DNA of 64,000 nucleotides, from positions 33,087 to 97,086 of the forward strand of contig JAFTPF010000011.1 of assembly GCA_017463445.1 (NCBI GenBank), given 5' to 3'. A model generated the notes under the pieces. The model was not told the origin of the DNA, made no database searches, and was given only the letters and a program-made list of their open reading frames with translations. Numbering within the stretch: the first letter of the stretch is position 1; each line of letters begins with the position of its first letter. Below, one piece after another: positions 1,261-62,857 of this stretch. A program made the translations under genes and the position numbers. The DNA comes from Clostridia bacterium. GTDB taxonomy: Bacteria > Bacillota > Clostridia > Oscillospirales > CAG-272.

Positions 1261-4026
1261 ATGGCTACTAACAAGAAAAAAAAGAAAGCCCCCGCCAAAT
1301 CTCCCGCTAAAGCGACAGAACAGACGGAAAAAATCACTTCCCGCACTGCTCCCCGACAGGAAACGGAGCAGAATGAGCACAAAAACGATCCCGACAGTCT
1401 GGGCAATCTGATCGTCCTCTTTGCTCTGCTTACCCTGTCGATCCTCTCCTTTGTCTTCCTCTTCTTCACCGATCTGTCGGCAGGCACCGACGGCAACGCC
1501 GGACCTGTCGGGTACGCATTTTGCTGTATTCTCTTCGGACTGCTGGGACCCTCGGCGTATTTGATCCCCTTCGCTCTGCTGTATCTGGTGATCTTCCGGG
1601 GCAGAAGTCTGCGACAAAACACTTATCTGCTGAAATTCGTCTCGGCTTTTCTCTTCGTCTTGCTGATCTCCACCGCCTTCCAGCTGTGGATACAGAATTC
1701 CTCGTCCTTGGGTCTTTCCACCCTCTGGTCCCGCGGCATTGACGGAAACGGCGGCGGCGTTCTGGGCGGTTTGATCGGCGGATTCCTGTATATGCTGATG
1801 AAAAAAGCGGCGTGGTTTATTCTGGCTCCCTGCATTCTGGTGAATATCCTGCTGCTGGCAGAGGTAACCCCCTCCATGATCACCCGTTTCTTCCGTAGAC
1901 TTGCCGCCAACCTGCGGGCCTATATGGCATCCCGTACCGAAGAAGAGGACGAGCCCGAGGAAGTGGAAAAGCCTACTCCTCCCAAAAAGAAAAAGAAGCC
2001 CACGGAAGAGGAGGAGCCGGTACAGGCGAAGCCCTATACCGCGCCGATCCCGCCTCCCGAAAAGCCTAAGCGCAAGGTATTCGGCGTAGAGGACGAGCCT
2101 GCCCCCGAACCCACTATGGAGGTTCCTGCGGTAGAAATGAAGCCGGTAGAGGTGGCAAACCCCATGGGCGATCCCGTGGTGGTCAATACCGCCACCGGCG
2201 AGGTTTTGGAGCCGGTCTACGCCTCCGCCGCCGCGTCGGGCTCCTCCACGGGCGAGCTGACGCTCACCGACATTTACGTCTCCCCCGAGAGCGACGAGGC
2301 CGCCGACCGTCTTGCGCAAGAGATGGAAAACCAGCGTCACCGCGCCCTCGGCGAACACAACGCCGCCGAGCTGGATATGTCCGATGAGGATCGCGCCCCG
2401 TGGGAGGATCCCATCGCGCCCGGTACAGGCACCGAACCGCTGACCCCCGAGGAAGAGGAGGTTGCCGCCTTCCTGCTGGACACCACCCGCGAACCGATCG
2501 CAGAGGAAACGCTGCCCGATTACGCCGTGGAGGAAACCAAGCCCATTTATCGCTTCCCGCCTCTCTCCCTGCTCTCACAGAACATCAATCTCCGGGCGGA
2601 GGACAACAGCGAGGAGCTGCGCCGCAACGGCGAAAAGCTGGTCTCTGTACTGCGCTCCTTCCGCGTATCCACCGAGATCGTGAACATTTCCCACGGTCCC
2701 ACCATCACCCGTTACGAGCTTGCCCCCAAGGAGGGCGTGCGCGTCCGTGCCATCGCCAATCTGGTAGACGACATCGCTCTGAATCTGGAGACCTCGGGCG
2801 TGCGCATCGAAGCGCCCATCCCCGGCAAAGCCGCCGTGGGCATCGAGGTTCCCAACAAGTCCGCCGCTACCGTCTATCTTCGGGAGCTTTTAGAAAACTC
2901 CACCTTCGAGAACTCCAAGAGTAAGGTGACCTGCGCGCTGGGTATGGACGTTGCCGGCGATCCCGTGTATCTGGACATTGCCAAGATGCCTCACCTGCTC
3001 ATCGCAGGTGCTACCGGTATGGGTAAATCGGTCTGCATCAACTCGCTGATCGTTTCCCTACTCTACAAAGCTTCCCCCGACGAGGTCAAGCTGATCCTCA
3101 TCGACCCCAAAAAGGTGGAGCTGAACGTCTACAACAAGCTCCCCCACCTGCTGGTTCCCGTTGTAAACCTGCCCAAGAAGGCGGCAGGCTCCCTGTCCTG
3201 GGCGGTGGGCGAAATGGAGCGCCGCTTCGAGCTGATCGAGGAAGTGGGCGTGCGCGACATCAAGGGCTACAATCAGATCACCGCAAACGATCCTCAAAAG
3301 GAATATCTCCCCCACATCGTCATCATCATCGACGAGCTTGCCGACCTGATGATGACCGCCCCCGACGACGTGGAAGAGTCGATCTGCCGTCTGGCGCAAA
3401 AGGCCCGTGCGGCGGGTATGCACCTGATCATCGGTACCCAGCGTCCTTCGGTAGACGTCATCACCGGTCTGATCAAGGCGAACATTCCCTCCCGAATCGC
3501 CTTCACGGTAGCCTCTAACGTGGACTCCCGTACCATCATTGACGTTGCCGGCGCAGAAAAGCTGATCGGCCGCGGTGATATGCTCTACGCGCCCGTCGGT
3601 GCCATGAAGCCTATCCGCGTACAGGGCTCCTTCGTCTCTGACAAGGAGGTGGAAGCGGTCTGCGACTTCATCCGCGCACAGGCAGGCGAGGGCGAGTACA
3701 GCTCCGATATTATGGAACAGATCGACAAAAACGCCGAACAATGCGGACAGAAGAAGAAATCCGGCTCTGCCGACCTGTCTGCGGGTGACAGCGACGACGG
3801 CGAGATCGATCCCAAATTCAACGACGCTGTGGAGGTTGCTCTGGAAATGGGCAAGATCTCTACATCCCTCCTCCAGCGCCGCCTGAATCTGGGCTACGGA
3901 CGAGCCGCTAAGATCATCGACCGTATGCAGGCCTGCGGCATCGTCAGCGAGCCCGACGGTCAGAAGCCCCGCAACGTCCTCATCTCCCGCTCAGACTGGA
4001 ATGAGATCAAGATGCGAAGTGAGTAA
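1261..4026 (+). CDS. ftsK: DNA translocase FtsK/SpoIIIE family
   Basis: 921 aa. It has a Lys-rich N-terminus, TM segments and a Pro/Glu-rich linker. The motor domain carries Walker A GATGMGKS and IIIDELADLM, followed by a C-terminal winged-helix gamma-like tail. Confidence 0.93.
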   Translation: MATNKKKKKAPAKSPAKATEQTEKITSRTAPRQETEQNEHKNDPDSLGNLIVLFALLTLSILSFVFLFFTDLSAGTDGNAGPVGYAFCCILFGLLGPSAYLIPFALLYLVIFRGRSLRQNTYLLKFVSAFLFVLLISTAFQLWIQNSSSLGLSTLWSRGIDGNGGGVLGGLIGGFLYMLMKKAAWFILAPCILVNILLLAEVTPSMITRFFRRLAANLRAYMASRTEEEDEPEEVEKPTPPKKKKKPTEEEEPVQAKPYTAPIPPPEKPKRKVFGVEDEPAPEPTMEVPAVEMKPVEVANPMGDPVVVNTATGEVLEPVYASAAASGSSTGELTLTDIYVSPESDEAADRLAQEMENQRHRALGEHNAAELDMSDEDRAPWEDPIAPGTGTEPLTPEEEEVAAFLLDTTREPIAEETLPDYAVEETKPIYRFPPLSLLSQNINLRAEDNSEELRRNGEKLVSVLRSFRVSTEIVNISHGPTITRYELAPKEGVRVRAIANLVDDIALNLETSGVRIEAPIPGKAAVGIEVPNKSAATVYLRELLENSTFENSKSKVTCALGMDVAGDPVYLDIAKMPHLLIAGATGMGKSVCINSLIVSLLYKASPDEVKLILIDPKKVELNVYNKLPHLLVPVVNLPKKAAGSLSWAVGEMERRFELIEEVGVRDIKGYNQITANDPQKEYLPHIVIIIDELADLMMTAPDDVEESICRLAQKARAAGMHLIIGTQRPSVDVITGLIKANIPSRIAFTVASNVDSRTIIDVAGAEKLIGRGDMLYAPVGAMKPIRVQGSFVSDKEVEAVCDFIRAQAGEGEYSSDIMEQIDKNAEQCGQKKKSGSADLSAGDSDDGEIDPKFNDAVEVALEMGKISTSLLQRRLNLGYGRAAKIIDRMQACGIVSEPDGQKPRNVLISRSDWNEIKMRSE

Positions 4027-11211: not shown

Positions 11212-12453
11212 ATGAGACTGAAGCTCCTTGCCCTCCTGTTGACCATCGCGACACTGGTTCCTGCCATTGTAGGATGCACCGGCACGACAACTGAGGTAAC
11301 AACGCAAGCCTCCGCCGAAGACACCGCCGCCACTACAAAGGCTCCCGAGGACGAAGAACCAGAGGTGCGCACCACCCAGTTTGCGGAACCTGCGCTTGAA
11401 TTGATCCATACGATCATTGACGATTACTGGATCTCCAGAAGCCAGACCCTTCGCGAAGAGCGGGGCAGCAGTGCGACCGCCTTCGCCTGGAGTTACGCTT
11501 CTTTTCTGGAAGCACTCTCCGAAGCATATCGCCTCTATCCCAACGATTCTAAGGTGGCTCAGACCTACCTGAGCGCATTGGAAGGCATAGAAGCGTATGC
11601 CGTCTCCACCACGATCACCGCACCCTCCGGCAGACACAAGGTTACTTATTATAACGCCAGCAAGGGCGGCAGCGGCGATTATTATTACGATGACGACGCA
11701 TGGATCTGCATCCAGTTTTTGACTGCCTACGAGCTTTTGGGCGACAAACAGTATCTGGAGAGAGCCGAGAAGACGCTGGAATTTCTGTGGACCGGTTGGG
11801 ACGATGTTCTGGGCGGCGGTATCTACTGGGACAAGACCTATGGCAGCAAGAACACCTGCGCCAACGGTCCTATCGCCATCGCATTCCTGTGGGCATATCA
11901 GTTGACCGAAAATACCGATTATCTTGCCAAAGGCGCCGCCATCTACGACTGGACGTACAATACACTGCGGGACGGCAGTCTGTACAACGACAGCATGGGC
12001 AAGGACGGCGGCAAAAACACCTGGAAGGCGGCGTACAACCAGGGCGTTATGATCTACGCCGGCGCACAGATGTATGAGATCACCGGCGATGAAACCTACT
12101 TGAAGCAAGCACGCTCCACTACCAACGCCTCCCTCAGCCTGATGTTCTCCGGCAGCGGCAGCAACACCAAGATGAAGGATAACCCCATCTACAAGGGTTG
12201 GTGCATCGGCTGGCTGACCCGCGGCTATCTGAAATACTATTCGGTAGATTCCAGAAAGAGCACTACTTCCATGAAAATGCTGGAAGCAGTACTGGTCAAT
12301 ACGCTGGAGACCAAAGACCGTAGCGGCTACTACGATCCCTATTTCTGCAACGAGAACGCTTGGTCCTCGGAATCCCGAACCTGCATCCTGCAGCCTGCCG
12401 GCGTCTGCTCCGTGCTATTCTTGGCCGCTTACTACGATTTGATATTGAAATGA
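11212..12453 (+). CDS. glycoside hydrolase family 76 (alpha-1,6-mannanase-like) lipoprotein, paralog 1
   Basis: Lipobox LVPAIVGC and a Thr-rich linker. DYYYDDDAWICIQFL holds the adjacent Asp pair characteristic of GH76. LEFLWTGWDDVLGGGIYWDK is also present. Confidence 0.8.
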   Translation: MRLKLLALLLTIATLVPAIVGCTGTTTEVTTQASAEDTAATTKAPEDEEPEVRTTQFAEPALELIHTIIDDYWISRSQTLREERGSSATAFAWSYASFLEALSEAYRLYPNDSKVAQTYLSALEGIEAYAVSTTITAPSGRHKVTYYNASKGGSGDYYYDDDAWICIQFLTAYELLGDKQYLERAEKTLEFLWTGWDDVLGGGIYWDKTYGSKNTCANGPIAIAFLWAYQLTENTDYLAKGAAIYDWTYNTLRDGSLYNDSMGKDGGKNTWKAAYNQGVMIYAGAQMYEITGDETYLKQARSTTNASLSLMFSGSGSNTKMKDNPIYKGWCIGWLTRGYLKYYSVDSRKSTTSMKMLEAVLVNTLETKDRSGYYDPYFCNENAWSSESRTCILQPAGVCSVLFLAAYYDLILK

Positions 12454-12658: not shown

Positions 12659-13924
12659 ATGAAAAAGAAACTTTTGGCCGCTCTGCTGGCGGTCGCCTCC
12701 CTGCTCCCCCTGGCAACGGCTTGCACCGGTTCCGATGCAGAGGTCACTACTGAAGGAACCACCACCACGACCGAAGCTGTAACGACCACCGTTCCCACCC
12801 CCTCCACCCCCCTCCCTTCCGACCAGTACGAGTCTCAGTTTGCTGAGCCTTCCTACAAGCTGATGCGCCAGATCATCAAGGATTACTGGCGTACCACCAC
12901 GCTCCGCACCGACCTGACCAGCTCCAACGCTGCTGTCGTTTGGGGATTTGCAGGCTTTTTAGAAGCGGTCGCCGAGGCGTACCGTCTCTTCCCCGACGAT
13001 GTGACCATCGAAAGAGCCTACAGAAACGCTCTGACTAAGGGCATCACGCAATACAAGGTCACCAATGCTACCATCACTGCGCCCACCGGCGACTACAAGG
13101 TCTCCTACTACAACGCAGGCAAGGGCGGATCGCGCGACTACTATTACGACGACGACGCTTGGATCTGCATCCAGTTTTTGAACGCCTACGAGCTTCTGCA
13201 AGATGAACAGTTCCTTGCTGAGGCCGAGGAGACGCTGGAATTCCTCTGGACCGGCTGGGACGATGTTCTGGGCGGCGGTATCTACTGGGATAAGTCCTAC
13301 AGCGGTAAGAACACCTGCGCTAACGGTCCTGTTGCCATCGCCTTCTTGTGGGCATATCAGCTGACCCAGAAGGAAGAATATCTGGAAAAAGGCAGAATGA
13401 TCTACGATTGGTGCCGTGAAAAACTGCTGGACGGTGACCTTTACATCGACAGCCTGGGCGTAGACGGCGGCAGAAACAACTGGAAAGCCGCTTACAACCA
13501 GGGTACCATGATCTACGCAGGCGCACAGCTCTACGAGATCACCGGCGACGAGACCTACCTGACGCAGGCGCGTGCCACAAACAAAGCAACGATCAGCCTG
13601 ATGTTCACCGGCAGAGGCTCCTCCACAAGAATGAACGGCAACCCTATTTACAGATCCTGGTGTATCGGCTGGCTGGTCCGTGGCTTTATGAAGTTCTACT
13701 CGGTTGATCCCGAAAAGGATACGACCGCTATGGATAATATGGCAGTGGTCCTCAAGCGCACTCTGAAGACCCAGAACAAGAAGGGCTACTACGATCCCTA
13801 CTTCTGCACCGGCGACTGGGCAAGCGAGTCGACTACCGACGTTCTCCAGCCCTGCGGCGTAGCATCGGTACTTCTGCTGACTACTTATTTCGAAGATTTC
13901 ATGGCAGCTAAAAACGCTGAGTGA
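12659..13924 (+). CDS. glycoside hydrolase family 76 lipoprotein, paralog 2
   Basis: Lipobox LPLATAC and a Thr-rich linker. It is collinear with 11212..12453 and shares identical blocks DYYYDDDAWICIQFL, LEFLWTGWDDVLGGGIYWDK and YEITGDETYL. Confidence 0.8.
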   Translation: MKKKLLAALLAVASLLPLATACTGSDAEVTTEGTTTTTEAVTTTVPTPSTPLPSDQYESQFAEPSYKLMRQIIKDYWRTTTLRTDLTSSNAAVVWGFAGFLEAVAEAYRLFPDDVTIERAYRNALTKGITQYKVTNATITAPTGDYKVSYYNAGKGGSRDYYYDDDAWICIQFLNAYELLQDEQFLAEAEETLEFLWTGWDDVLGGGIYWDKSYSGKNTCANGPVAIAFLWAYQLTQKEEYLEKGRMIYDWCREKLLDGDLYIDSLGVDGGRNNWKAAYNQGTMIYAGAQLYEITGDETYLTQARATNKATISLMFTGRGSSTRMNGNPIYRSWCIGWLVRGFMKFYSVDPEKDTTAMDNMAVVLKRTLKTQNKKGYYDPYFCTGDWASESTTDVLQPCGVASVLLLTTYFEDFMAAKNAE

Positions 13925-13940
13925 GCCCTCCTCTTTTAAA

Positions 13941-14130
13941 AAAGAGTCCGAACATTCGGACTCTCAGACTGAAGACAAAGTCTACCCCTTCCGCTGGCAC
14001 CAGCCAAGGAAAGGGGTAGGAGGTCTGGAGGAAGGGGGAAAACTTCGGCGTTTGAGATGGTTTCCCCCTTCCTCCAGTTCTTGAAACAATTTTGTCTACA
14101 CTTTGAGAGTCCGAACATTCGGACTCTTTT
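13941..14130. mobile_element. MITE-like non-coding element with ~37-bp imperfect terminal inverted repeats
   Basis: The ends are AAAAGAGTCCGAACATTCGGACTCTCAGACTGAAGAC (left) and GTCTACACTTTGAGAGTCCGAACATTCGGACTCTTTT (right, inverted). The interior holds a perfect 17-bp stem, CTGGAGGAAGGGGGAAA...TTTCCCCCTTCCTCCAG. It has no coding capacity. Confidence 0.6.
13991..14065 (-). repeat. dispersed ~70-nt repeat, copy A
   Basis: The minus strand reads GGAAACCATCTCAAACGCCGAAGTTTTCCCCCTTCCTCCAGACCTCCTACCCCTTTCCTTGGCTGGTGCC. It aligns with copies at 19106-19165 and 60649-60724. Confidence 0.75.
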
Positions 14131-14235
14131 ATATTTTTTTCCAAAACCCCAAATCCTTAAAGAAAAATTCACAAATAGGGACTATAATAGAGTTGTTGCA
14201 TCTGTTCTGACCGCAGAAATCTACCGGATGCCGGA

Positions 14236-14790
14236 GTGCCTATGACATCCCCCTTCACGCTCCCTCCCAAGGAACAGGTCTGCTGCTTTACCGGGCATCG
14301 GGATATAACCTTCTCTGCCATGCAGGAAGTCCTGCCGCGGCTCACCGAAGCGGTCACAGAGCTGTTGAACAGCGGCGTTTCCACCTTCATCGTAGGCGGC
14401 GCGCGGGGATTCGACACGCTGGTCGCCATCCAGCTGATCAATCTGCGACGGCATCTTTATCCTAGTCTGCGGTTGGTGCTGGCGCGTCCCTGCCCCGGGC
14501 AGGCAGACCGCTGGCCCGCTTCCGAACGGTCGCTGTACGAGACCGTCCGTAGAGAGGCGGATCTGGATATCCTCCTTGCCGACCGTTATTACAACGGCTG
14601 TATGCAAAATCGCAACGCTTTTATGGTAGATCACAGCAACCATCTGCTTGCTTATGTGACCCGTACCTCGGGCGGCTCTTATCAGACCTTGACGCTGGCG
14701 CGCCGACGGGGTCTCTCCATTCAAAATCTCGCCGAGAGTGGCATCGCTCTCACCTTCCCCGAACAGCAGGGACTGTTCGACGGGATCTGA
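14236..14790 (+). CDS. SLOG-fold DUF1273 (YpsA-like) protein
   Basis: FTGHRDI...FIVGGARGFDT...NRNAFMVDHSNHLLAY matches the pattern of the YpsA/DUF1273 family. Confidence 0.75.
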   Translation: MPMTSPFTLPPKEQVCCFTGHRDITFSAMQEVLPRLTEAVTELLNSGVSTFIVGGARGFDTLVAIQLINLRRHLYPSLRLVLARPCPGQADRWPASERSLYETVRREADLDILLADRYYNGCMQNRNAFMVDHSNHLLAYVTRTSGGSYQTLTLARRRGLSIQNLAESGIALTFPEQQGLFDGI

Positions 14791-18856: not shown

Positions 18857-19215
18857 ATCGTGGGGCGCTGCCCCACACTCCGCCAAAGAACCTTCTTGTA
18901 AAAAGGTTCTTTGGAATCTCCAAGAACTTTTGAAAAGCCCCGCAAATACTTGCGGGGCTTGATTTTTTGAAATCTATTCCCTCCAACTTGTAGGGACAGG
19001 CGTCCTCGACTGTCCCGTTTGCAAAGGGATCGCTCTGTGAAAATCCTTAGAAATCCAAGGAAGCAATTTCGCCTGCGTCGAAATTGTAATCTGAGAAGGG
19101 GAGAAGAAACCATCTCAGACGCCGAATGTTTCAGACTCTTTCCCTCATCCACCTTGGCTGGCGTGTCGAGAGACTGATAGTAAGATGATGGGGCTGTAAA
19201 ACAAGTTTTTTCCAA
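18857..19215. repeat. ~360 bp non-coding mosaic of hairpin modules plus dispersed-repeat copy B
   Basis: Hairpins lie at 18860-18876, 18884-18915 (P2), 18945-18970 (P3), ~19003-19030 (GGGACAG...CTGTCCC) and ~19064-19086 (CAATTTCG...CGAAATTG). Repeat copy B lies at 19106-19165. Confidence 0.75.
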
Positions 19216-21056: not shown

Positions 21057-21251
21057 AAACCGCCTTGCAAATATTTGCAAGGCGGTTTGCTTACAATTCG
21101 AACGCCGACGAGTACTCGTCGGCGTTTTCATAAAGTTTTCGGAGTCCAGAACCCTTTTTCAAAGAAGGGATGGAGTTGCCTCAACGAGGCAACTCCGGCA
21201 ATTCGGCTTTGCCGAATTGCATGGGTGGGGTTCCAAGGGCAGAGCCCTTGG
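21057..21251. repeat. six consecutive hairpin modules filling a convergent intergenic gap
   Basis: Hairpins lie at 21057-21088, 21101-21126 (CGACGAGTACTCGTCG core), ~21152-21169, 21172-21196, 21198-21220 and 21233-21251. The last is the exact reverse complement of 4032-4050. The linker TTCATAAAGTTTTCGGAG lies at 21127. Confidence 0.8.
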
Positions 21252-24394: not shown

Positions 24395-24614
24395 ATGCAT
24401 TTGGGGCTCTGTCCCCCGCTAAACTTTCTTGAAAAAAAGTTTGGATCAGAAGATCCCCTGCCCGACGAATACTCGTCGGGCAGGGGATCTTCTTTGATAT
24501 TCTTTTATAAATTGCACATACTGATAATAATCACAATCTGCCGGGCAAGTATTTGCCCGGCTTCATAAAAGTTTTAGAAGGGGTTTGGGGGAACCTTTTT
24601 CAAAAGGTTCCCCC
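24395..24614. repeat. mosaic hairpin element (P4-P3-linker-P2)
   Basis: A perfect 21-bp stem with a 4-nt loop lies at 24448-24493. GCCGGGCAAGTATTTGCCCGGC lies at 24540-24561. The linker TTCATAAAAGTTTTAGAAGG follows. GGGGGAACCTTTTTCAAAAGGTTCCCCC lies at 24587-24614. Confidence 0.85.
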
Positions 24615-25525: not shown

Positions 25526-27637
25526 TTACTGCTTTTTCTTCTTGATCACAACTACCGCGATCACGGCGATAACCACCACAGCGGCAGCTACGCCAATCAC
25601 GATAGGCAGCACGGAGCCGTCCTCTTCTGCAGAGTCGTCGGTGGTACCGGTATCGTTATCGGATGCACCGTTGGTTACGGTGGGTGCCTTGGTGGTTACG
25701 GGAGCCTTAGTGGTAGTGGTCGCGGGCTCATCGGTCACCACGGGATCGGTGGGATCCTCGGTTGCAGGAGGATCCACAGGATCGGTGGGATCGGTGGGAT
25801 CCTCGGTTGCAGGGGGATCTACAGGATCGGTAGGATCGGTAGGATCCTCGGTTGCTGGGGGATCTACAGGATCGGTGGGCTGACCGTCATAGTTATAGAG
25901 CTCCAGCTCTGCAGCAGATACAGCTCCGCCGCCCCAGTTTGCACAGTTTACTTCCCAACGGTAGTAGGTGTATGCTGCAGGCTCGTCAACCTCGTACATA
26001 GCGGTGCCGTTATTCACACAGCCCATACCACCCATACCGCGGTCAACGTCGTCGATGATAGTATAGGTCTTGCCGTCGTTGGAGCCCAGCAGAGTCCAGG
26101 ATGCGGGAACACGGCAGTAATCGAAGCTGTCTTCCCATGCAGTGGTGATCGCATAGTTGGTAATAGTGGTAGGCTCGGTGGTCTGCCAGGTTACGAAAGC
26201 GGTGATGCCGTTGCCGCCCATCTTGGTATCTTTCTTGCCGTCGAACAGATTGGTAACAGCGCCGTCGGGCCACATACCCTTGTTGACTGCGATGGTAGCT
26301 TGGTCGATCTTGTCGGTCAGGAGAGTGCCGTCAGCTGCGATGGTAGCCGCAACATCGGGAGCCAGCATATCGGTGTCGGTGGGAACAGTGGTCTTGAATG
26401 CGAGAACCTGTTCAATGGCCTTTGCGGTAGCACCGGTGAAATCCTCGGTAGCGGAATACTTGACCACAGGCTTTACAGCGTCGCCGCCGTCACGCTCCAT
26501 GTAGGCAGCGGTGATGGTGTAGGTCTTGCCTGCTTCCAGCTTGATGGAAGAGGTGTACCAGGTCTCGGATGCATTGTTGTAGGTGCGCTCTGCCCACAGC
26601 TCGTATACGCGGGTATCGTCGATCTGGATCATCAGACCGTTGTCAACCTTGGTGGTACCAAACAGGTAGTAACCGGTCTCGGCAACGGTGAAGGTACCTT
26701 CGTACAGGTTGATGTAGGATTCGTCTGCGGGAGCAGGAGTCCAGGGAGTGATGGTGGGAGTCACAACAGTACCGCCGATCTGCTGAGAAGTAGCCAGCAG
26801 ACCTTCGATGGTCTCGTCGTAGTAAGCGGTATTATCGCCGCACTGAGAGTTGTCGCCGCCCTCAAGATCGTCGCCTGCAGCCGCAAATACCTTTACGTAA
26901 GGATGGTTAGTGTTGCCGGGATCGCCCCAACGGTCGGCCTTGTTGTGGTAGCAGTCTACGGACAGATCAAAGGTCAGACCCAGTTCTGCCAGAGATTTGA
27001 ACTCGGTAGAGTCACCCACGTAGCCGCCGATTTCCAGAGCGTCACCGCCGGTGAGCTCCAGGAACCAGATGTTCACGTCATAGGACTCGCCTGCTTTTAC
27101 AGTGATCGAACCCAGATCGCTGGCAAGATCGGCAGCCTCGGCTTTCAGCCAGTGAGAGGAGCCCCACCATTCGTAGTAACGGGTGTCGTCCATTTCGAAC
27201 ACAAAGCCGTTATCGATCTTGTTGGCAACCAGAGTGAAGGTCAAGTCCCTGGAAGCGGTCATAGTACCGGTCCAGTTCAACATATAGTTATTACCGTTGG
27301 GAGCGCCCAGAGTGCCGGTTACCAAGCTGTCGCCGTCCAGCTGGAAGGTAGTGGTCTTCACCGCTTCTTCATTAGTCTTGCGGGACCAGTACATCAGCTC
27401 GTCGATAGTCTGGTCGAAACGGTGCATATTTCTGTAATCGGCCATTTCGCCGTCACCGTCATTGCCGAAGATCTTTTTATAAGCGTCGTCCCAAGCTGCG
27501 GTATTGGCCACCAACTGGTATGAGGTCTGGGACAGACCGTCAACAGTAGTAGCGGTTTCTGCTGCGTTGACTGAAAAGGCGGAAGCCATAGACAGCATCG
27601 TAGCAGTTGCAAGAATTGTTGCAAGTGTCTTTTTCAT
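25526..27637 (-). CDS. secreted multi-domain surface protein: PA14-like repeats, F5/8 type C (CBM32-like) domain, Pro/Thr/Asp repeats and a C-terminal TM anchor
   Basis: Signal peptide MKKTLATILATATMLSMASAFSVNA. The DNGF/LxxxxDDTRxYExW blocks are PA14-like (inference). The discoidin-like segment is NLFDGKKDTKMGG...WTLLGSNDGKTYT...YYRWEV...AAELELY. PTDPTDPVDPPATED occurs three times. The tail is VIGVAAAVVVIAVIAVVVIKKKKQ. Confidence 0.75.
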   Translation of the reverse strand: MKKTLATILATATMLSMASAFSVNAAETATTVDGLSQTSYQLVANTAAWDDAYKKIFGNDGDGEMADYRNMHRFDQTIDELMYWSRKTNEEAVKTTTFQLDGDSLVTGTLGAPNGNNYMLNWTGTMTASRDLTFTLVANKIDNGFVFEMDDTRYYEWWGSSHWLKAEAADLASDLGSITVKAGESYDVNIWFLELTGGDALEIGGYVGDSTEFKSLAELGLTFDLSVDCYHNKADRWGDPGNTNHPYVKVFAAAGDDLEGGDNSQCGDNTAYYDETIEGLLATSQQIGGTVVTPTITPWTPAPADESYINLYEGTFTVAETGYYLFGTTKVDNGLMIQIDDTRVYELWAERTYNNASETWYTSSIKLEAGKTYTITAAYMERDGGDAVKPVVKYSATEDFTGATAKAIEQVLAFKTTVPTDTDMLAPDVAATIAADGTLLTDKIDQATIAVNKGMWPDGAVTNLFDGKKDTKMGGNGITAFVTWQTTEPTTITNYAITTAWEDSFDYCRVPASWTLLGSNDGKTYTIIDDVDRGMGGMGCVNNGTAMYEVDEPAAYTYYRWEVNCANWGGGAVSAAELELYNYDGQPTDPVDPPATEDPTDPTDPVDPPATEDPTDPTDPVDPPATEDPTDPVVTDEPATTTTKAPVTTKAPTVTNGASDNDTGTTDDSAEEDGSVLPIVIGVAAAVVVIAVIAVVVIKKKKQ
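25743..25879. repeat. in-frame 45-nt tandem repeat (about 3 copies) encoding PTDPTDPVDPPATED
   Basis: Direct reading of GGATCGGTGGGATCCTCGGTTGCAGGAGGATCCACAGGATCGGTG-like units. Confidence 0.8.
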
Positions 27638-37051: not shown

Positions 37052-37227
37052 GCTCCGCCGACTTAAAACCCCTTCATGTAAGAAGGGGTTTTAAGAATCT
37101 ACCAAAAGCTTTATGAAAGCGCCGCAAATACTTGTGGCGCTTCGTTCTTCTCCCGCTCGACGAGTATTCGTCGGGCTTTTTCAAAAGTTTTTGGGGTCTT
37201 AGGGGGGCTTTTTTCAAAAAGCCCCCT
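37052..37227. repeat. mosaic hairpin element (terminator hairpin, P3, P4, linker, P2-variant)
   Basis: Hairpins lie at 37052-37085, 37117-37140 (CGCCGCAAATACTTGTGGCG), ~37152-37176 (CGACGAGTATTCGTCG) and 37201-37227 (AGGGGGGCTTTTTTCAAAAAGCCCCCT). The linker is CAAAAGTTTTTGGGG. Confidence 0.8.
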
Positions 37228-55070: not shown

Positions 55071-57056
55071 TCAATACACTCTCACCCGATCACAAAACAC
55101 AACAATCGGTGCCACCGCCCATGGGTGAAAGAGACTGGTGTTCCACTTCTGCTCTATCCCCCACGCCTCAAAGGTGACACTCGCACCCTCGCGGAGCATA
55201 TTGACCCACGCGCCCTCGTCGGTGGCAAGAGCTTCGCAAAGTGCACCCTCTCCTGCCTGTTTGAGAGCAGCGAGAGCAAAATACGCCATATAAACGCCCA
55301 TAGAGGCGAGCTTTTTCGCCGCAATGATCTCCACCAGCCGCCGTTTCAGCGCCTCGTCCTCGCATCCGATGCCGAAGAGCAGTGGGAAGATCTGGGAATG
55401 CACCGATGCGTGATCGCTCTCGGCAGAGTCGGCAAACAAACCCGTTTCGGCGCGGTAAAAGGTCTTCACAAACGCCGATCTCGTCTTTTCCGCACCGACA
55501 TCGGCGGATTTTCCGAGGATTCCGTAGATCTCACCTATCGCCAGCTTCAGCCCATACCAGAGAGCATTGATCACATTGTGCAGTCCCTCTCCCACGGGGT
55601 TGGTGAGCGGAAAATCATAGCCGTCTCTGAGACCCGCCGGCCAGTCCACCAGATTCCACTTGTCGGTGACTTTTTCCAGCAGTCCGTCGAGGCGTTCAAA
55701 CTGCCGAAAATATTCGTACACCCCCGTCGCCCAAGGCTCAGCACGGCGAAGGAAGTCGAGATCGCCGTCCACCGAGTAGATCCAAGCGATCAGCGCAGGG
55801 TATTCCAGCGAATAGTCGGCGATCTCCTGCATATGGGAGCACCCGGTCACCGCCATCAACCCGGGACAGATGAAGGAAGTCCTGCCGAAATTCTCGGCGA
55901 CCTGCTTCAGAAGGGTAGTATCTCCCGTCAGGATCGCCTGCGCTCTGCCCGACACCATCATGTCGCCAAGATACGCGCCCTTTTCCCGGGTGGGACAGTC
56001 GATAAACTGCTCCTGCGTGCCGTATTTTACCGTATTTTCGCACAGATTCAGCACTTTTCGCAGGTTTTCGTTGTCGGTCGCGTATTCGCGCCGCTTTTGG
56101 TAAGGATAATGGCGCACCGTCATCGACACGTCGCTGATCTCCACACTGTCGGGGAAGATCAGCTCGGCGTAGCGGAAAGCTTTGTAATCGAACTGTCGGA
56201 GAATATCCTCGCCCCCCGACAGGATCCACTTTTCCTCGTAGCGACAGTTACAGCGCATCTCATAGCGGGGCGAGCCGTCAGCAGACAGCTCCTCGCCGTA
56301 GCGGAGAATCACCGTATCTCCCCGATTTCCGCGGGCTTGGGCGGTCAAAACGCCCACCGCTTCGGTAGGGAAGGTGAGACGAAGCCCTCTCTCGGTACGC
56401 TTGCAAGTCTCGGGAAGCATGGGATAGACCGCGATCTGCTCCGATGTTTGCGGGATCAGACTCCATCCACCTGTCGTGTTGACTTTGGCAAGGTCCCATT
56501 TGCTGTCGTCGAAATCTTTTTCAAAAAACTTGTCTTCGGGAGATGCCGAATCGTAGCACTCGGCAAAGGCGGTATCGTAACCGATCCTACCGCAGGCAGT
56601 ATAGCCGGTGTGATAGGCGCACTTCCAACTCTCGTCGCTGACCAAGACCACTTCGCCGTCCAGCGAAAGGGAGCAATACAGCATCTGTCTGAGATCTCCC
56701 GACACCCACACGCGGTTGCGGAGTCCTTGGTAGTAGGTGTGGACGGCAAAGACGTTCTCACCCTCCACGAGATGGTCGGTGACGTCGATCTCATTGACAT
56801 AGTAAGCGTGGGGATAGCCGGGCGCAGGCCCTTCAGTGACGTAGCGTCCGTTGATATATAATTTGTAGAAATCATCTGCCGTGATCCGCAAAATAGCGCG
56901 GGAAAAGCCGCCGAAGGTCGCTCTGCGGCGGTAGAGAATGTGCTTGTTTTGGAGATCGGCAGAATGCGAGTAGGGGATCTTCTTGTGCTCCTTGTGAAAA
57001 ACAGGAAGGGGAGAGAGCCCGACAAAGTCGGGGTGAGAGATAAATGAAGGTGTCAT
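55071..57056 (-). CDS. alpha-L-rhamnosidase-like glycoside hydrolase (GH78), cytoplasmic
   Basis: The N-terminal domain is FYKLYINGRYV...ENVFAVH. The catalytic-domain signature is DCPTREKGAYLGD. There is no signal peptide. ATG 57056 overlaps the rfbB stop (ATGA). Confidence 0.75.
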   Translation of the reverse strand: MTPSFISHPDFVGLSPLPVFHKEHKKIPYSHSADLQNKHILYRRRATFGGFSRAILRITADDFYKLYINGRYVTEGPAPGYPHAYYVNEIDVTDHLVEGENVFAVHTYYQGLRNRVWVSGDLRQMLYCSLSLDGEVVLVSDESWKCAYHTGYTACGRIGYDTAFAECYDSASPEDKFFEKDFDDSKWDLAKVNTTGGWSLIPQTSEQIAVYPMLPETCKRTERGLRLTFPTEAVGVLTAQARGNRGDTVILRYGEELSADGSPRYEMRCNCRYEEKWILSGGEDILRQFDYKAFRYAELIFPDSVEISDVSMTVRHYPYQKRREYATDNENLRKVLNLCENTVKYGTQEQFIDCPTREKGAYLGDMMVSGRAQAILTGDTTLLKQVAENFGRTSFICPGLMAVTGCSHMQEIADYSLEYPALIAWIYSVDGDLDFLRRAEPWATGVYEYFRQFERLDGLLEKVTDKWNLVDWPAGLRDGYDFPLTNPVGEGLHNVINALWYGLKLAIGEIYGILGKSADVGAEKTRSAFVKTFYRAETGLFADSAESDHASVHSQIFPLLFGIGCEDEALKRRLVEIIAAKKLASMGVYMAYFALAALKQAGEGALCEALATDEGAWVNMLREGASVTFEAWGIEQKWNTSLFHPWAVAPIVVFCDRVRVY

Positions 57057-58039
57057 ACTGTCCCGCCCTTCCAAAGGGGACGCCACCAATCGCCGCTTTC
57101 CAGATACCAGCGGACGGTGCGCTCCAGCCCTTCCGAAAAATCGGTTCGGGGTGTCCATCCCAGCTCACGACGGAGCTTTTCCGAGTCAATGGAATACTTT
57201 CGGTCGTGCCCCTTGCGGTCGGCAACGTAGATGATCAGCTCCTCCCCCTTGCCAAGCAGTCTCAGCAGACGGCGGATAAGCTCCAGATTGCAGATTTCGT
57301 CGGAGCTACCCACATTGTAGACCTCGCCGGGCTTGCCCTTTTGCAGGATCAGATCCACGGCAGCGCAATGATCCTCCACGTACAGCCAGTTGCGCACGTT
57401 CAGACCGTCTCCGTAGACCGGGAGCGGCTTGTCCGAGAGCGCATTTGCAATCATCAGCGGGATCAGCTTTTCGGGGAACTGATAGGACCCGTAATTATTG
57501 GAAGAGCGGCTGACTGTCGCCGGCAGACCGTAGGTACGAAAATAGGACAGCGTCAGGAGGTCTGCCGAGGCTTTGGAAGCGGAATAAGGACTGCTGGGAC
57601 ATAGCGGCGACGCTTCGGTAAAGCGATTATCGGAGTCCAGTGGCAGATCGCCGTAGACCTCGTCGGTGGAGATCTGGTGAAACCGCTTTACGCCATACTT
57701 GCGGGAAGCGTCCAACAGCACGCCCGTCCCCAGAACGTTGGTGCGCAAAAACACCTCAGGATCCTCGATCGAGCGATCCACATGGCTCTCCGCGGCAAAA
57801 TTCACTACTACATCGGGATGTTCTTCGGAAAACACCCGGTCGATCAGATCGCGGTCGCAAATATCCCCCTGCACAAAGCAAAACCGAGGATCGGAAAGGA
57901 TAGGCTCCAGCGTAGACAGATTGCCTGCGTAGGTCAGTTTGTCCACGCACACGATGCGGCGATCGGGATATTTCTTCATTATATAAAAGATGAAATTGCT
58001 ACCGATAAATCCGGCTCCGCCGGTGATCAGCATGGTCAT
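57053..58039 (-). CDS. rfbB: dTDP-glucose 4,6-dehydratase
   Basis: MLITGGAGFIGSNF is the Rossmann motif. The YSASKA catalytic motif is present. GGGAGG is the RBS before ATG 58039. Confidence 0.92.
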   Translation of the reverse strand: MTMLITGGAGFIGSNFIFYIMKKYPDRRIVCVDKLTYAGNLSTLEPILSDPRFCFVQGDICDRDLIDRVFSEEHPDVVVNFAAESHVDRSIEDPEVFLRTNVLGTGVLLDASRKYGVKRFHQISTDEVYGDLPLDSDNRFTEASPLCPSSPYSASKASADLLTLSYFRTYGLPATVSRSSNNYGSYQFPEKLIPLMIANALSDKPLPVYGDGLNVRNWLYVEDHCAAVDLILQKGKPGEVYNVGSSDEICNLELIRRLLRLLGKGEELIIYVADRKGHDRKYSIDSEKLRRELGWTPRTDFSEGLERTVRWYLESGDWWRPLWKGGTV

Positions 58040-58095
58040 ACGGACACCTCCCTTGATTCTGTAATCAGCATAGAACATACTTTTTAACAAGTCAA

Positions 58096-58545
58096 TCAAT
58101 GATGCATTCTCTGCGCAGCCTTTAAAACATACACCGTATTGATTGTATATACGGTTGCTACTACGGCAACGATCAAGAAATATATTTGAAATTCAAAAAA
58201 TACCCTGTATAATACTACGGATCCAAATAAAACAAACCACATTGAAATGGATACAACCGACATGATCGTTATCAAAATGATTGATTTGTGTTTCAGCTTG
58301 GTATTTGTGTGCACCTTTCCGTCCGTTTCGTCTTTTAACCATTCATAGCAATTCAGATAGTAAATGTCTGTCCACATCAAAAAGGCGGTGATCAGCAACA
58401 AAACAACAACGGGAGGTATTGCCTTGATGATAACTCCCGCCAGTACCGTAAATGTTGCCATCGCTACAGTCATCAAAGAAGATATCACCAGCATGATCAT
58501 CGTTATAGTCTTTGCGGTGTTGTGTTTCATTTCTTCCTCCATCAC
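58096..58545 (-). CDS. four-TM membrane protein, unknown function (AT-rich island)
   Basis: 149 aa with four hydrophobic segments. Confidence 0.5.
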   Translation of the reverse strand: MMEEEMKHNTAKTITMIMLVISSLMTVAMATFTVLAGVIIKAIPPVVVLLLITAFLMWTDIYYLNCYEWLKDETDGKVHTNTKLKHKSIILITIMSVVSISMWFVLFGSVVLYRVFFEFQIYFLIVAVVATVYTINTVYVLKAAQRMHH

Positions 58546-60227: not shown

Positions 60228-60611
60228 ATGAAGGAGGAAAACCAAATGCCCGAACAGAACGGCGTGGAGGTATGCGAGTTCCTGTGCGCCCACGAATCGG
60301 TGGTCTCAGAGGTCAGAGAGCATATGCCGGACGAGGACACTCTATTTGAGTTGGCGGAGTTTTATAAGGTCTTCGGCGATTCCACCCGCATCCGCATCCT
60401 GACGGTGCTCTGCCGCCACGAGATGTGCGTCTGCGACCTTGCCACCATCCTTTCCATGAACCAATCCGCCATCTCCCACCAGCTCCGCATCTTGAAGCAA
60501 GCCCGACTGATCACCTCCCGCAGAGAAGGGAAGCAGGTCTTCTACTCTCTTGCCGACGATCATGTCCGCCACATCCTGGACACCGCCATCGAGCATCTTG
60601 CCGAACGGTAA
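60228..60611 (+). CDS. ArsR/SmtB-family metalloregulator (CadC-like)
   Basis: FKVFGDSTRIRILTVLCRHEMCVCDLA holds the CVC metal site in helix alpha-3. The wHTH is SAISHQLRILK. Confidence 0.88.
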   Translation: MKEENQMPEQNGVEVCEFLCAHESVVSEVREHMPDEDTLFELAEFYKVFGDSTRIRILTVLCRHEMCVCDLATILSMNQSAISHQLRILKQARLITSRREGKQVFYSLADDHVRHILDTAIEHLAER

Positions 60612-60648
60612 CCGCTCCTTATTTAGTTGCAATACAGAATCGGATGAA

Positions 60649-60724
60649 GGAAAAAACCATCTCAAACGCCAAAGCTTTTCCCTTCCCCCAAACCTCCATC
60701 CCTATTCCTTGGCTATCGCCGACG
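60649..60724 (+). repeat. dispersed ~70-nt repeat, copy C
   Basis: GGAAAAAACCATCTCAAACGCCAAAGCTTTTCCCTTCCCCCAAACCTCCATCCCTATTCCTTGGCTATCGCC aligns with copy A. Shared blocks are CCATCTCAAACGCC, ACCTCC and TTCCTTGGCT. Confidence 0.75.
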
Positions 60725-60788
60725 AATAAAAAACTGCAATTTGTTATAGCAATAATACCTTTATTAAAATATAGAAAGCGAGTTTATT

Positions 60789-61019
60789 ATGATCATTACC
60801 AAAACCTACCGTTTCACCGACATCGACTGCCCCAACTGTGCCGCAAAAGCCGAGGCAAAGATCAAAAAGATCCGCGGCGTACAGGACGCATCCATCGCGT
60901 TTTTCGCGCAGAAGGTGACCATCACCGCCGACGAAGCTGATTTCGCCACCATCTATCCCGAGGCAGTTGCCGCTGTGAAAAAGATCGAGCCCGACTGCGA
61001 GCTGGTGGAAGTAAAATGA
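60789..61019 (+). CDS. stand-alone heavy-metal-associated (HMA) domain protein
   Basis: 76 aa. DIDCPNCAAKAEAKIKKIRGV is a CxxC metal-binding loop in a ferredoxin-like fold. Its stop overlaps the ATPase start (ATGA). Confidence 0.75.
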   Translation: MIITKTYRFTDIDCPNCAAKAEAKIKKIRGVQDASIAFFAQKVTITADEADFATIYPEAVAAVKKIEPDCELVEVK

Positions 61020-62857
61020 AGCTCTCCCGCGCCCAAAAGCGCAAGCTGACCGCCATCCTGCTCTCCGGCGCACTGTTGATTGCCGCCGCCATTCTCGACG
61101 CGATGCAGACCCCCGTTTGGTGGGTCGCACTTCTACTCTACATTCCCGCCTTTTTGCTGGCAGGCTACGAGACCCTGCTGTCCGCAGGCCGCAACATCCT
61201 GCATGGACAGGTGTTTGACGAGAACTTTCTGATGTCCGTCGCCTCCATTTGTGCCATGATCCTGGGCGAGCACGCAGAGGCTGTGGGCGTTCTACTGTTC
61301 GGAGCGCTGGGCGAGCTGTTCGAATCCTACGCCATCGGCTCTGCCAGACGGTCAGTGAAAGCCCTTGCCAAGCTCTGCCCCGACACGGTACACCTGCTAC
61401 GTGCAGACGGCTCCGCCGAGGACATCGCCGCCGAGGATGCCGAGGCGGGCGCACTCTTCCTGGTCTACGCCGGCGAGCGCATCCCGCTGGACGGCGTGAT
61501 CGTAGAGGGCGAGGCCGCGCTGGACTGCGCCGCCCTCACCGGCGAATCGCTCCCTGTAGAGGTAGAATCGGGCGCCGAGGTGTCGGCAGGCACCATCAAT
61601 CTGAACGGATTTTTGAAGATCCGCGCCCTGCGACCCGCAAAGGAATCCTCCGCCGCCCGCATTCTGGCAATGGTAGAGGACGCATCCGCCAAAAAAGCGA
61701 GATCCGAGGCGTTTATCACCAAATTTGCCCGCTATTACACCCCCATCGTGGTGGGAGCGGCGATTCTGCTTGCAGTCGTCCCCTCTCTCATCTTCGGGAA
61801 CTATACCGACTGGATCTACCGTGCGCTGAACTTCCTGGTCATCTCCTGCCCCTGCGCGCTGGTGATCTCGGTACCCCTGACCTTTTTCGGTACCATCGGC
61901 GGTTCCGCCCGCCGGGGTATCCTGTTCAAGGACGCCGCCGCCATCGAGACACTGTCGGAAACGTCGGTAGCCGCCTTTGACAAGACCGGAACCCTGACCG
62001 AAGGCCGCCTCTCCCTTGCACAGGCATACCCCGTAGGTTGCACCCGTGAGGAGCTGCTCAACTATGCCGCCGCCGCGGAATACGGCTCCACTCACCCCAT
62101 CGCCAAGGCGATCCTTGAAAACGCCTCGATCGCTCCCGAAGAGATCTCCCATTCCACCGAGCTGCGCGGCAAAGGCCGCACCTGCACCCTGAGCGGTCGG
62201 AAGATTGCCGTAGGTCGCCGCCGTTTGCTTGACGAGCTTGGCGTCTACATCCCCGATGCAGAGGAAAGCACCACCGTAGTTTACGTTGCCGAAGACGGAC
62301 AGTATCGGGGCTACATCACCTTCTCAGACCGGATCAAATCCGACTCGGCGGAAGCCATCACCGCTCTGCACCGGGCGGATGTATCCACCGTGATGCTGTC
62401 AGGCGACAACCGCAACGGTGCTGAGCGAGTAGCATCTGGGCTGGGTATCAGCCGCTACCGCTGGGGACTGCTTCCCGAGGATAAAGTCAACGCGCTGGGC
62501 GAACTGTCCGCAGAGAGCGAGGGCAAGCTGATCTTCGTAGGCGATGGCATCAACGACGCGCCCTCTCTTGCCGCGGCAGACGCAGGGATTGCTATGGGCG
62601 GCATCGGCTCGGACGCGGCTATCGAAGCCGCCGACGTAGTCCTGCCCGGCGACAATCCGCTAAAGGTAGCAGAAGCCGTCCGCATCTCCCGCAAGGCTAT
62701 GCGTATCGCACGCCAGAACATCGTCTTCGCGCTGGGCGTAAAGGGCTTGTTCCTGCTCCTGTCGGCATTTGGTCTCACTAATATGTGGATGTCGGTCTTC
62801 GCCGACGTGGGCGTATCGGTGATCGCTATTCTGAACGCCATGCGGACGCTGCGATGA
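61016..62857 (+). CDS. heavy-metal-translocating P1B-type ATPase (Cd/Zn/Co-type)
   Basis: The CPC TM motif is SCPCALV. DKTGTLT, HP (STHPIAKA) and GDGINDAP are present. There is no fused N-terminal metal-binding domain. Confidence 0.9.
   Translation: MKLSRAQKRKLTAILLSGALLIAAAILDAMQTPVWWVALLLYIPAFLLAGYETLLSAGRNILHGQVFDENFLMSVASICAMILGEHAEAVGVLLFGALGELFESYAIGSARRSVKALAKLCPDTVHLLRADGSAEDIAAEDAEAGALFLVYAGERIPLDGVIVEGEAALDCAALTGESLPVEVESGAEVSAGTINLNGFLKIRALRPAKESSAARILAMVEDASAKKARSEAFITKFARYYTPIVVGAAILLAVVPSLIFGNYTDWIYRALNFLVISCPCALVISVPLTFFGTIGGSARRGILFKDAAAIETLSETSVAAFDKTGTLTEGRLSLAQAYPVGCTREELLNYAAAAEYGSTHPIAKAILENASIAPEEISHSTELRGKGRTCTLSGRKIAVGRRRLLDELGVYIPDAEESTTVVYVAEDGQYRGYITFSDRIKSDSAEAITALHRADVSTVMLSGDNRNGAERVASGLGISRYRWGLLPEDKVNALGELSAESEGKLIFVGDGINDAPSLAAADAGIAMGGIGSDAAIEAADVVLPGDNPLKVAEAVRISRKAMRIARQNIVFALGVKGLFLLLSAFGLTNMWMSVFADVGVSVIAILNAMRTLR

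Follow-up and report, generated by a model that had tools for sequence, protein, structure and literature searches.

A 141-bp MITE with IS1182-type ends in a Clostridia bacterium, probably inserted in a terminator hairpin with duplication of the whole hairpin

Certain insertion sequences (ISs) that belong to the IS1182 family select their targets by shape. IS1272 and TnSha1 integrate in hairpins, several of which are confirmed terminators, without sequence preference (PMC4923244), and their insertion deletes part or all of the target stem-loop and generates no duplication (PMC4923244, PMC5678879). In the cruciform model, the 3' ends of the transposon attack an extruded cruciform (PMC5678879). 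If this attack occurs at the 5' feet of the stem-loops, the stem-loop is predicted to be duplicated in its entirety (PMC5678879, Fig. 13 pathway b). An earlier review, as cited in PMC5678879, reports palindromic targets for some IS1182 family members. Whole-hairpin duplication is a hypothetical pathway in PMC5678879 and is not documented in the literature searched.

Classical MITEs, such as Correia/nemis, RUP, ERIC, and Nezha, are small elements without a transposase that have terminal inverted repeats (TIRs), direct repeats, and stable stem-loops, are present in many copies, and occupy sites that are filled in one relative and empty in another; their target duplications are short and fixed (2-9 bp), and it is usually their ends, not their interiors, that are best conserved (PMC10969869, PMC3184786). 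The bcr1 element, a non-coding mobile repeat of ~155 bp from the Bacillus cereus group, is found in transcribed intergenic regions of these Gram-positive hosts, has a fold maintained by compensatory changes and a strain distribution that is not conserved, and is flanked by 5-bp direct repeats (PMC3184786). REP elements and REPINs, which RAYT transposases move, are intergenic hairpins scattered through genomes and frequently situated behind genes (PMC3337134). No MITE that duplicates a whole terminator was found in the reviews and papers searched. The direct repeats of the IS1182 family reportedly range from 0 to 60 bp in the ISfinder family table.

The element considered here lies in the window, a 64,000-nucleotide stretch of the genome of a Clostridia bacterium. 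It shares with classical MITEs the general properties given above and is unlike described MITEs in two ways: its duplication has the length of a hairpin, and its interior is better conserved than its ends. For the latter feature bcr1 is the closest analogue; the two are also alike in size, Gram-positive host, intergenic setting (transcribed in bcr1 and predicted to be transcribed here), compensatory changes, and unconserved distribution. However, bcr1 differs in its short direct repeats, in having no reported hairpin targeting, and in its partner transposase, and there is no sequence relationship. The likeness to IS1272 and the composite TnSha1 of staphylococci (PMC4923244, PMC5678879) lies in the DDE type and in hairpin targets that are often terminators just downstream of genes; the window element, unlike these, has no transposase and is only 141-143 bp. 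The reading favored here, with a probability of roughly 0.85, is that it is an IS1182-type MITE, inserted in the bidirectional terminator of a GH76-family gene by a hairpin-targeting transposase, with duplication of the whole hairpin. Four lines of evidence lead to this reading: empty sites in relatives, duplicated hairpins that are specific to each site, ends of the IS1182 family, and ISs that are themselves flanked by hairpins. All of the features tested for a MITE were found (size, TIRs, a target-derived direct repeat, dispersed copies with empty sites, and autonomous elements with the same ends), as were those tested for the IS1182 family (membership of the transposase of a matching IS, and hairpin targets in both IS and MITE flanks).

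The whole feature is housed in the 317-bp gap between the GH76 gene and a downstream YpsA/SLOG-family gene (Table 1), and 19 nt separate the GH76 stop codon from the first hairpin. Immediately upstream, the window contains tandem GH76-family paralogues (11212-12453 and 12659-13924) with 75-81% nucleotide identity over ~650 bp. This GH76 duplication is common to two related loci (L142 and L145); a third (L144) has one copy, and in a fourth (L141) one is visible near the contig start.

Table 1. Coordinates of the element, its flanks, and the further core copies in the window
Feature	Position	Strand	Basis or remark
GH76-family glycoside hydrolase gene, upstream neighbor	12659..13924	+	Pfam PF03663, E = 1.4e-30
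A-tract of the original bidirectional terminator (predicted)	13937..13942	.	sequence; relatives have A-tract, single hairpin, T-tract
Left hairpin copy (20-22 bp target-site duplication, with a 1-nt ambiguity at its boundary)	13943..13964	.	exact direct repeat; single hairpin in relatives
MITE proper, 141 bp	13965..14105	+	missing from syntenic gap of L141, L142, L144, L145; 140-145 bp copies elsewhere with same ends
Left terminal inverted repeat CAGACTGAAGACAAA	13965..13979	+	17/17 match to IS-C (L179), 18/19 to IS-A; recurs in other MITE copies
Copy-specific hairpin CTACCCCTTCC...GGAAAGGGGTAG	13982..14019	+	inverted repeat; includes family-invariant AGCCAAGGA (14002-14010)
Conserved core hairpin, purine-rich 5' arm and pyrimidine-rich 3' arm	14025..14077	+	covariation
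Invariant top of core hairpin CUUCGGCGUUUGAGAUGG	14043-14060	+	within 14025..14077
Probable 9-nt terminal loop GGCGUUUGA	14047-14055	+	within core hairpin
Right terminal inverted repeat TTTGTCTACACTTTG	14091..14105	+	12/15 complementary to left end
Predicted plus-strand intrinsic terminator (right hairpin copy and TTTTATATTTTTTT)	14105..14140	+	terminator scan; T-tract and downstream sequence kept in relatives
Right copy of duplicated target hairpin	14106..14127	.	exact direct repeat of 13943-13964
YpsA/SLOG-family gene, downstream neighbor	14242..14790	+	Pfam PF06908; orthologues 74-87% identical
Copy C, decayed; subfamily with CAGTCT-CTCGAC / TTTCGAC ends	19084..19163	-	42.7 bits; ends compared with L033
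Copy B, decayed, without recognizable ends or duplication	60631..60718	-	66.8 bits

The original prediction described a MITE-like element with TIRs of ~37 bp, an identical 20-bp palindrome at both ends, two strong hairpins, and an interior without an ORF. The palindrome is present at both ends, and the identity extends to a 22-mer, AGAGTCCGAACATTCGGACTCT, which is exact in the two copies; the 20-mer had 0 matches in 100 shuffles. Inverted symmetry is also present at the ends, where 43 nt (13937-13979 / 14091-14133) are complementary at 86%. However, the palindrome is asymmetric at its center, CA: the plus strand reads CA in each copy, and a reverse-strand alignment leaves two mismatches. This shared orientation of the CA makes the outer 20-22 nt a direct repeat, not an inverted one. 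The ~37-bp TIR thus turns out to combine two things: the target hairpin, duplicated directly over 20-22 bp, and a true TIR, which is imperfect and only about 15-19 bp long. Within it, CAGACTGAAGACAAA and CAAAGTGTAGACAAA match at 12/15 positions, and the same ends recur in other MITE copies. Because IS tips keep a T...A outside CAG...CTG, the boundary of the MITE possibly lies one nucleotide further out; if such IS-like tips belong to the element, it may extend from 13964 to 14106 (143 bp), with a 20-bp duplication. Both interior hairpins were found, and a 221-nt stretch that includes them folds at -116 kcal/mol (z = -12.4); in other copies an AT-rich stretch replaces the stem at 13982-14019. 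As to the interior, the region is in fact crossed by mechanical ORFs of 62-78 aa; these are not conserved from copy to copy, and there is no transposase gene. A small peptide starting from the loop AUG was considered and rejected, as its downstream frames and stops are unconserved among the three copies of the core in the window.

The syntenic locus was taken from four related organisms, whose YpsA proteins are 87, 82, 74, and 75% identical to that of the window; the loci are L141, L142, L144, and L145. The gene order aminotransferase, GH76, (GH76), YpsA, methyltransferase is common to the four. In these organisms the GH76-YpsA gap measures only 152-196 bp, and the 141-bp interior is absent from it in 4/4 cases. 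Each gap contains a single hairpin, AAAGAG...CTCTTT, and then TTTTATATTTTTTTCCAAAAC and a promoter-like TATAAT region as in the window. Since the relatives have one hairpin and no insert, the window arrangement equals that of a relative plus 141 bp plus a second copy of the hairpin. The stem sequences of the empty-site hairpins differ from that of the window, so the empty sites are orthologous positions rather than pre-insertion alleles. When metagenomes were scanned with the palindrome, the matches were all unrelated single hairpins (marine, soil), and neither an empty nor a filled site of the window locus was among them.

In the window, AAAAAA precedes the left copy of the hairpin and TTTTATATTTTTTT follows the right copy. 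On sequence grounds the flanking hairpins have the hallmarks of an intrinsic (rho-independent) terminator, a GC-rich stem-loop and a U-tract, and are predicted to function as such. The right copy together with TTTTATATTTTT is the sole terminator-like plus-strand site flagged by a terminator scan. The left copy, which the scan leaves unflagged, has by eye 5-6 T next to it on the minus strand; the A-tract of the original terminator now accompanies this copy and would provide the U-tract of minus-strand transcripts.

Copies elsewhere were sought by scanning one genome per species for the invariant loop TTYGGCGTYTGAGATGGTT, which gave at least 114 stretches. Among the matches listed, nearly all come from gut Clostridia MAGs (roe deer, sheep, horse, buffalo, human, and chicken), there are several copies per genome, and many copies lie at contig ends. 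The covariance model finds 134 matches among those listed, in 691 kb of other genomes from ~40 MAGs, many of them cut by contig ends. Eight copies have both ends intact; these measure 140-145 bp, start with CAGNCTG..., and end with ...CANNNTG. In seven of the eight, the flanking direct repeat consists of an entire hairpin that is peculiar to that locus, and the lengths of these duplications vary: 33 nt (L065), 28 (L107), 24 (L033), 22 (L075 and the window), 20 (L064), and 17 (L085). Six further copies (L094, L108, L040, L014, L112, and L116) have the same pattern in a less perfect form. Of the 15 copies with hairpin flanks, 13 are located just downstream of a long co-directional ORF, as judged by rough ORF calls. 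A distant BLASTN search with the 141 bp against plasmid and phage collections gave no match, and no protein family recurs as a neighbor of the copies, the best being present at 6 loci. A search of these loci for a larger element with the same ends produced a single candidate, of 2.7 kb (L031), which was rejected as a chance pair ending inside a metG-like gene.

Three copies from a single genome, RGIG3995 (L036, L064, and L075), are nearly identical to one another and yet have different flanking hairpins. Therefore, the hairpins are derived from the target, and the element has moved recently. One of these copies (L064) adjoins DNA that is 84% identical to window positions 55075-58498, where the window has one ordinary terminator hairpin; thus this site is filled in RGIG3995 and the corresponding site in the window is empty. 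The same observations bear on two other explanations. In the first, the feature would be of the single-strand (HUH/Y1) type, an IS200/IS605 PATE or a REPIN, in which the directly oriented hairpins are the element's own recognition ends. Identical end hairpins in direct orientation are indeed expected for IS200/IS605 ends, and the core in GC-rich relatives forms head-to-head pairs, as REPINs do. However, the hairpins here differ at every site, even within one genome, as target-derived hairpins would, and relatives without the insert keep one hairpin. Moreover, the conserved inverted ends are shared with DDE-type IS1182 elements and duplications are present, whereas REPINs have their own hairpins and neither such TIRs nor target duplication; this explanation is very improbable. 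In the second, the feature would be an immobile small RNA or regulatory element specific to this locus and insulated by local duplication of a terminator, which would suit its location between two genes, the terminator-like hairpins that bracket it, and its very stable fold. This is equally hard to credit, given the syntenic relatives that lack it, the model matches in other genomes, and the near-identical copies at unrelated loci.

Several minor features were seen among these loci. At L019 (~3500-3800), a copy is flanked by an 86-nt imperfect direct repeat with two hairpins, far longer than the other duplications. In a 57-kb metagenome contig from the window's own strain (L002), the sequence stops at the first base of the second hairpin copy (locus position 4448). 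The repeat or its palindromes seem to break assemblies, many family copies being at contig ends, and the reading as a hairpin-duplicating MITE would explain why such repeats interrupt genome assemblies of gut Clostridia. Terminator-like hairpins with variable stems and a conserved center, GCAAATACTTGC (CAARTAYTTG), are found in the window at 18935-18960, 21060-21085, 24538-24563, and 37117-37142, and also at L032, L033, L094, and L108, with complementary arms in 12/17 locus hits. Three of the hairpins duplicated by a MITE (L033, L094, and L108) are of this GCAAATACTTGC type.

Autonomous elements with matching ends were also found. When viral contigs were searched for the left end CAGACTGAAGACAAA, most matches were due to chance, but one contig (L179) carries an IS of 1544 bp, IS-C, with CAGACTGAAGACAAA and CAGAGTGAAGACAAA as its ends. 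On either side of this IS stands a 32-bp direct repeat, AAACTGGTATTGGTATTCACTAATACCAGTTT, that constitutes a full terminator of A-tract, hairpin, and T-tract. Its 446-aa protein scores 459 bits against NCBIfam NF033551 (IS1182 family transposase; cut-off, 270), matches Pfam DUF772 and DDE_Tnp_1_6 as well, and shows full identity to a Secundilactobacillus kimchicus protein that carries the name IS1182 family transposase. This best-matching IS belongs to a Lactobacillaceae species, not to Clostridia. Thousands of homologues of the transposase, at ~60% identity, are present in gut metagenomes. Two homologous ISs (IS-A and IS-B), one of them named from a Lachnospiraceae MAG, were checked at ten sites each, on metagenome contigs that can be chimeric. 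Both have the tips TCAGACTGTAGACAAAGTC...GACTTTGTCTACRGTCTGA (...GTCTGA), and a perfect hairpin of 7-12 bp abuts the tip in 35/40 flanks, compared with 76/4000 random positions (1.9%). At four sites (L208, L210, L216, and L217) the same hairpin is found on both sides of the IS, giving whole-hairpin duplications of 20-26 bp. In several other IS contigs the left and right hairpins are unlike, perhaps because the contigs are recombinants or were assembled as chimeras. At least one such contig, L211, combines the left flank of L208 with the hairpin of L214, through either recombination between IS copies or chimeric assembly.

The left end of the window element agrees with those of the ISs as given in Table 1, and nothing is common beyond the first 15-19 nt; ISs with these ends score as members of the IS1182 family. 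All three ISs contain a hairpin close behind the left end, and the MITE core is missing from all three. Tblastn with the IS transposases detected no IS1182-family transposase gene in the window or across MITE-bearing loci totaling ~0.8 Mb, and two further look-ups of transposase homologues led to assemblies unrelated to the MITE-bearing ones. The proposal that the feature is a non-autonomous transposon had called for further copies, empty sites, target-site duplications, and an autonomous element with matching ends; all of these now exist, as the dispersed copies, the four syntenic relatives, the duplicated locus-specific hairpins of the window and other loci, and the three ISs, and they bear it out.

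Together these observations suggest the following pathway. The ends of the MITE, which has no gene of its own, are the TIRs of a subgroup of IS1182-family ISs with the tips (T)CAGACTGWAGACAAAG, and mobilization would occur in trans by an IS1182-type transposase. The target would have been the bidirectional intrinsic terminator behind the GH76 gene, chosen by the transposase for its hairpin or cruciform shape, not for its sequence. The ends of the element would then be joined at the two feet of the stem-loop, on opposite strands, as the geometry of a cruciform would allow. Gap repair would subsequently copy the whole hairpin to both sides, making the length of the duplication equal to that of the hairpin, 20-22 bp here and 17-33 bp elsewhere. 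Such a pathway fits because the length of the repeat tracks the hairpin over this 17-33 bp range, which a fixed stagger in B-form DNA cannot give. In the resulting product the left hairpin copy would keep the outer A-tract, and the right copy would keep the T-tract. Since each copy retains its outer A- or T-tract, termination should survive in both directions and the MITE would be transcribed by read-through as part of the GH76 3' UTR. This outcome contrasts with that of IS1272 and TnSha1: in those cases part or all of the stem-loop is removed, while the window element and the three ISs that share its ends duplicate it whole. Several points weigh against the favored reading: the negative search for such a transposase gene in the MITE-bearing loci, the Lactobacillaceae source of the best-matching IS, the hairpin deletion by IS1272, the IS contigs with unlike flanking hairpins, the divergent stems at the empty sites, and the better-conserved interior. 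Integration of spacers by Cas1-Cas2, and that of casposons, proceeds by staggered joining at the borders of a palindromic unit followed by gap repair, by which the entire unit becomes duplicated. The parallel is purely mechanistic; the enzymes belong to an unrelated family, their target is defined by sequence, and there is no evidence of Cas1 here. If the proposed pathway is correct, the element is a clean natural record of structure-directed transposition, with a terminator hairpin of any sequence as the target and a duplication of hairpin length. It would also illustrate a route by which DNA can insert behind genes without abolishing termination, adding ~140 nt of structured sequence to 3' UTRs.

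An unfiltered search of the whole window with the covariance model finds exactly three copies of the core, A (89 bits), B, and C (Table 1), which share a block of ~80 nt. Copy A is the one inside the element, where a copy of a dispersed repeat had been predicted. The core is under selection for pairing. Across its hairpin, 162 cells are changed on both sides, a value reached in 0/500 shuffles, compared with 48.5 expected; 91% are paired, and slid controls give 16-53 cells changed on both sides. AGCCAAGG is invariant in 51/51 aligned copies. The top of the hairpin is invariant in these 51 copies as well, but it served as the pattern for finding them; the 13-pair stem beneath it changes freely. 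In the divergent subfamily at L063, which has 8 core copies in 8 kb, the inner stem switches from CUUC/GAUG to CCCC/GGGG, and for this reason the terminal loop is probably the 9-mer GRCGUYUGA. A pseudoknot of GCCAAG with CUU(C)GGC is unsupported, as the L063 loop reads GAC, not GGC. MITEs seldom have an interior that surpasses their ends in conservation, and this interior, to judge from its lack of relationship to the IS interiors, is not IS-derived. Because the autonomous ISs lack the core, it is dispensable for IS1182-family transposition.

The core is found with two types of ends, CAGACTGWAGACAAA and CAGACTGTCGATAAA (the latter at L033, and in copy C in a decayed form). Where genomes are GC-rich, it occurs without recognizable ends, often as head-to-head pairs, and is accompanied by a 3' hairpin with a GGGA or GAGA cap that shows a compensatory change from CGCGC/GCGCG to CGCCC/GGGCG. 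There the core, together with this hairpin (UCGCGC-GGGA-GCGCGA followed by an A-run), is frequently arranged in divergent pairs, tandem arrays, or dense clusters. Head-to-head core pairs are present at L008, L041, L100, L068, L081, and L074, a tandem core array at L021 (6210-6539), and dense clusters of 7-8 copies per 8 kb at L063 and L077.

What the core does can be viewed in two ways. It could be a small structured RNA that is the essential unit, for which the transposon ends are a mere vehicle, a view that is compatible with the MITE reading. Such an RNA would be expressed from 3' UTRs or from the promoters of neighbors, and its effect would depend on the invariant AGCCAAGGA and the invariant top of the hairpin, which might, for example, bind a protein or another RNA. 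The strong covariation with invariant unpaired nucleotides speaks for an RNA, as do the occurrence of the core with two end types or with none, the added 3' hairpin of the GC-rich relatives, with its GGGA/GAGA loops and compensatory change, and the fold of copy B, which is good on one strand only (-35.8 vs -16.1 kcal/mol). However, Rfam 15 at the gathering threshold finds only two tRNAs in the window and no family at the element; relaxed thresholds yield only chance microRNA-like hairpin matches, no match overlaps the cores of 18 further loci, and tRNA and tmRNA scans find nothing in the element region. Neither is there wobble asymmetry between strands (G-T and A-C mispairs, 40 vs 47; p = 0.52), an orientation bias relative to neighboring genes (home-made ORF calls, rough and noisy), or a conserved promoter inside the element. 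An RNA of this kind, which the original prediction had offered as a second option in the form of a structured RNA cassette, is a possibility to be entertained only tentatively.

The core hairpin could instead act as DNA, as a cruciform or single-strand hairpin bound by the transposase or by a host factor, for complex assembly or as a decoy target. The mobilizing family does recognize hairpin shape (PMC4923244; the IS flanks here), the pairs are nearly all Watson-Crick with wobble that lacks strand bias, and each of the three ISs has its hairpin just inside the left end. But the core is wholly missing from these autonomous ISs, and the idea does not account for the invariant 9-nt AGCCAAGGA, whose position is external to the hairpin; a role as DNA is accordingly doubtful, and less probable than one as RNA. 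The broader suggestion covering both, that the interior is a functional mobile module (structured RNA or DNA hairpin) characterized by the invariant AGCCAAGGA and GRCGUYUGA, is speculative, and so, to a similar degree, is its spread through gut Clostridia by at least two kinds of IS1182-type ends and by head-to-head pairs and tandem arrays. If true, the transposon would be the vehicle of a widespread, undescribed non-coding element rather than just selfish spacer DNA, and an abundant, strongly constrained non-coding motif without an entry in RNA databases would be exposed.

The other two core copies in the window have settings of their own. Copy B lies antisense in a 177-bp gap (60612-60788) that has an arsR-type repressor gene (60228-60611) on one side and, on the other, a small HMA-domain gene (60789-61019), which is followed by a P-type ATPase gene (61016-62857); this gap is the expected operator/promoter position for the metal-efflux genes. 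Downstream of copy C, on the minus strand at ~18985-19012, there is another dispersed module, in which CTAC comes after a hairpin (GGGACAGTCGAGGACGCCTGTCCCTAC). It is also present at L003, L104, L117, L017, and L086, and its core, GTCGAGGACGCC, has one occurrence in the window and 6 in the loci; read on the other strand, it resembles a GTAG-headed REP element of the kind moved by RAYT. Finally, window positions 25742-25876 consist of three tandem 45-nt units, GGGATCGGTGGGATCCTCGGTTGCAGGAGGATCCACAGGATCGGT, that are 89-96% identical and lie inside a long ORF pair, probably within a surface or linker protein.
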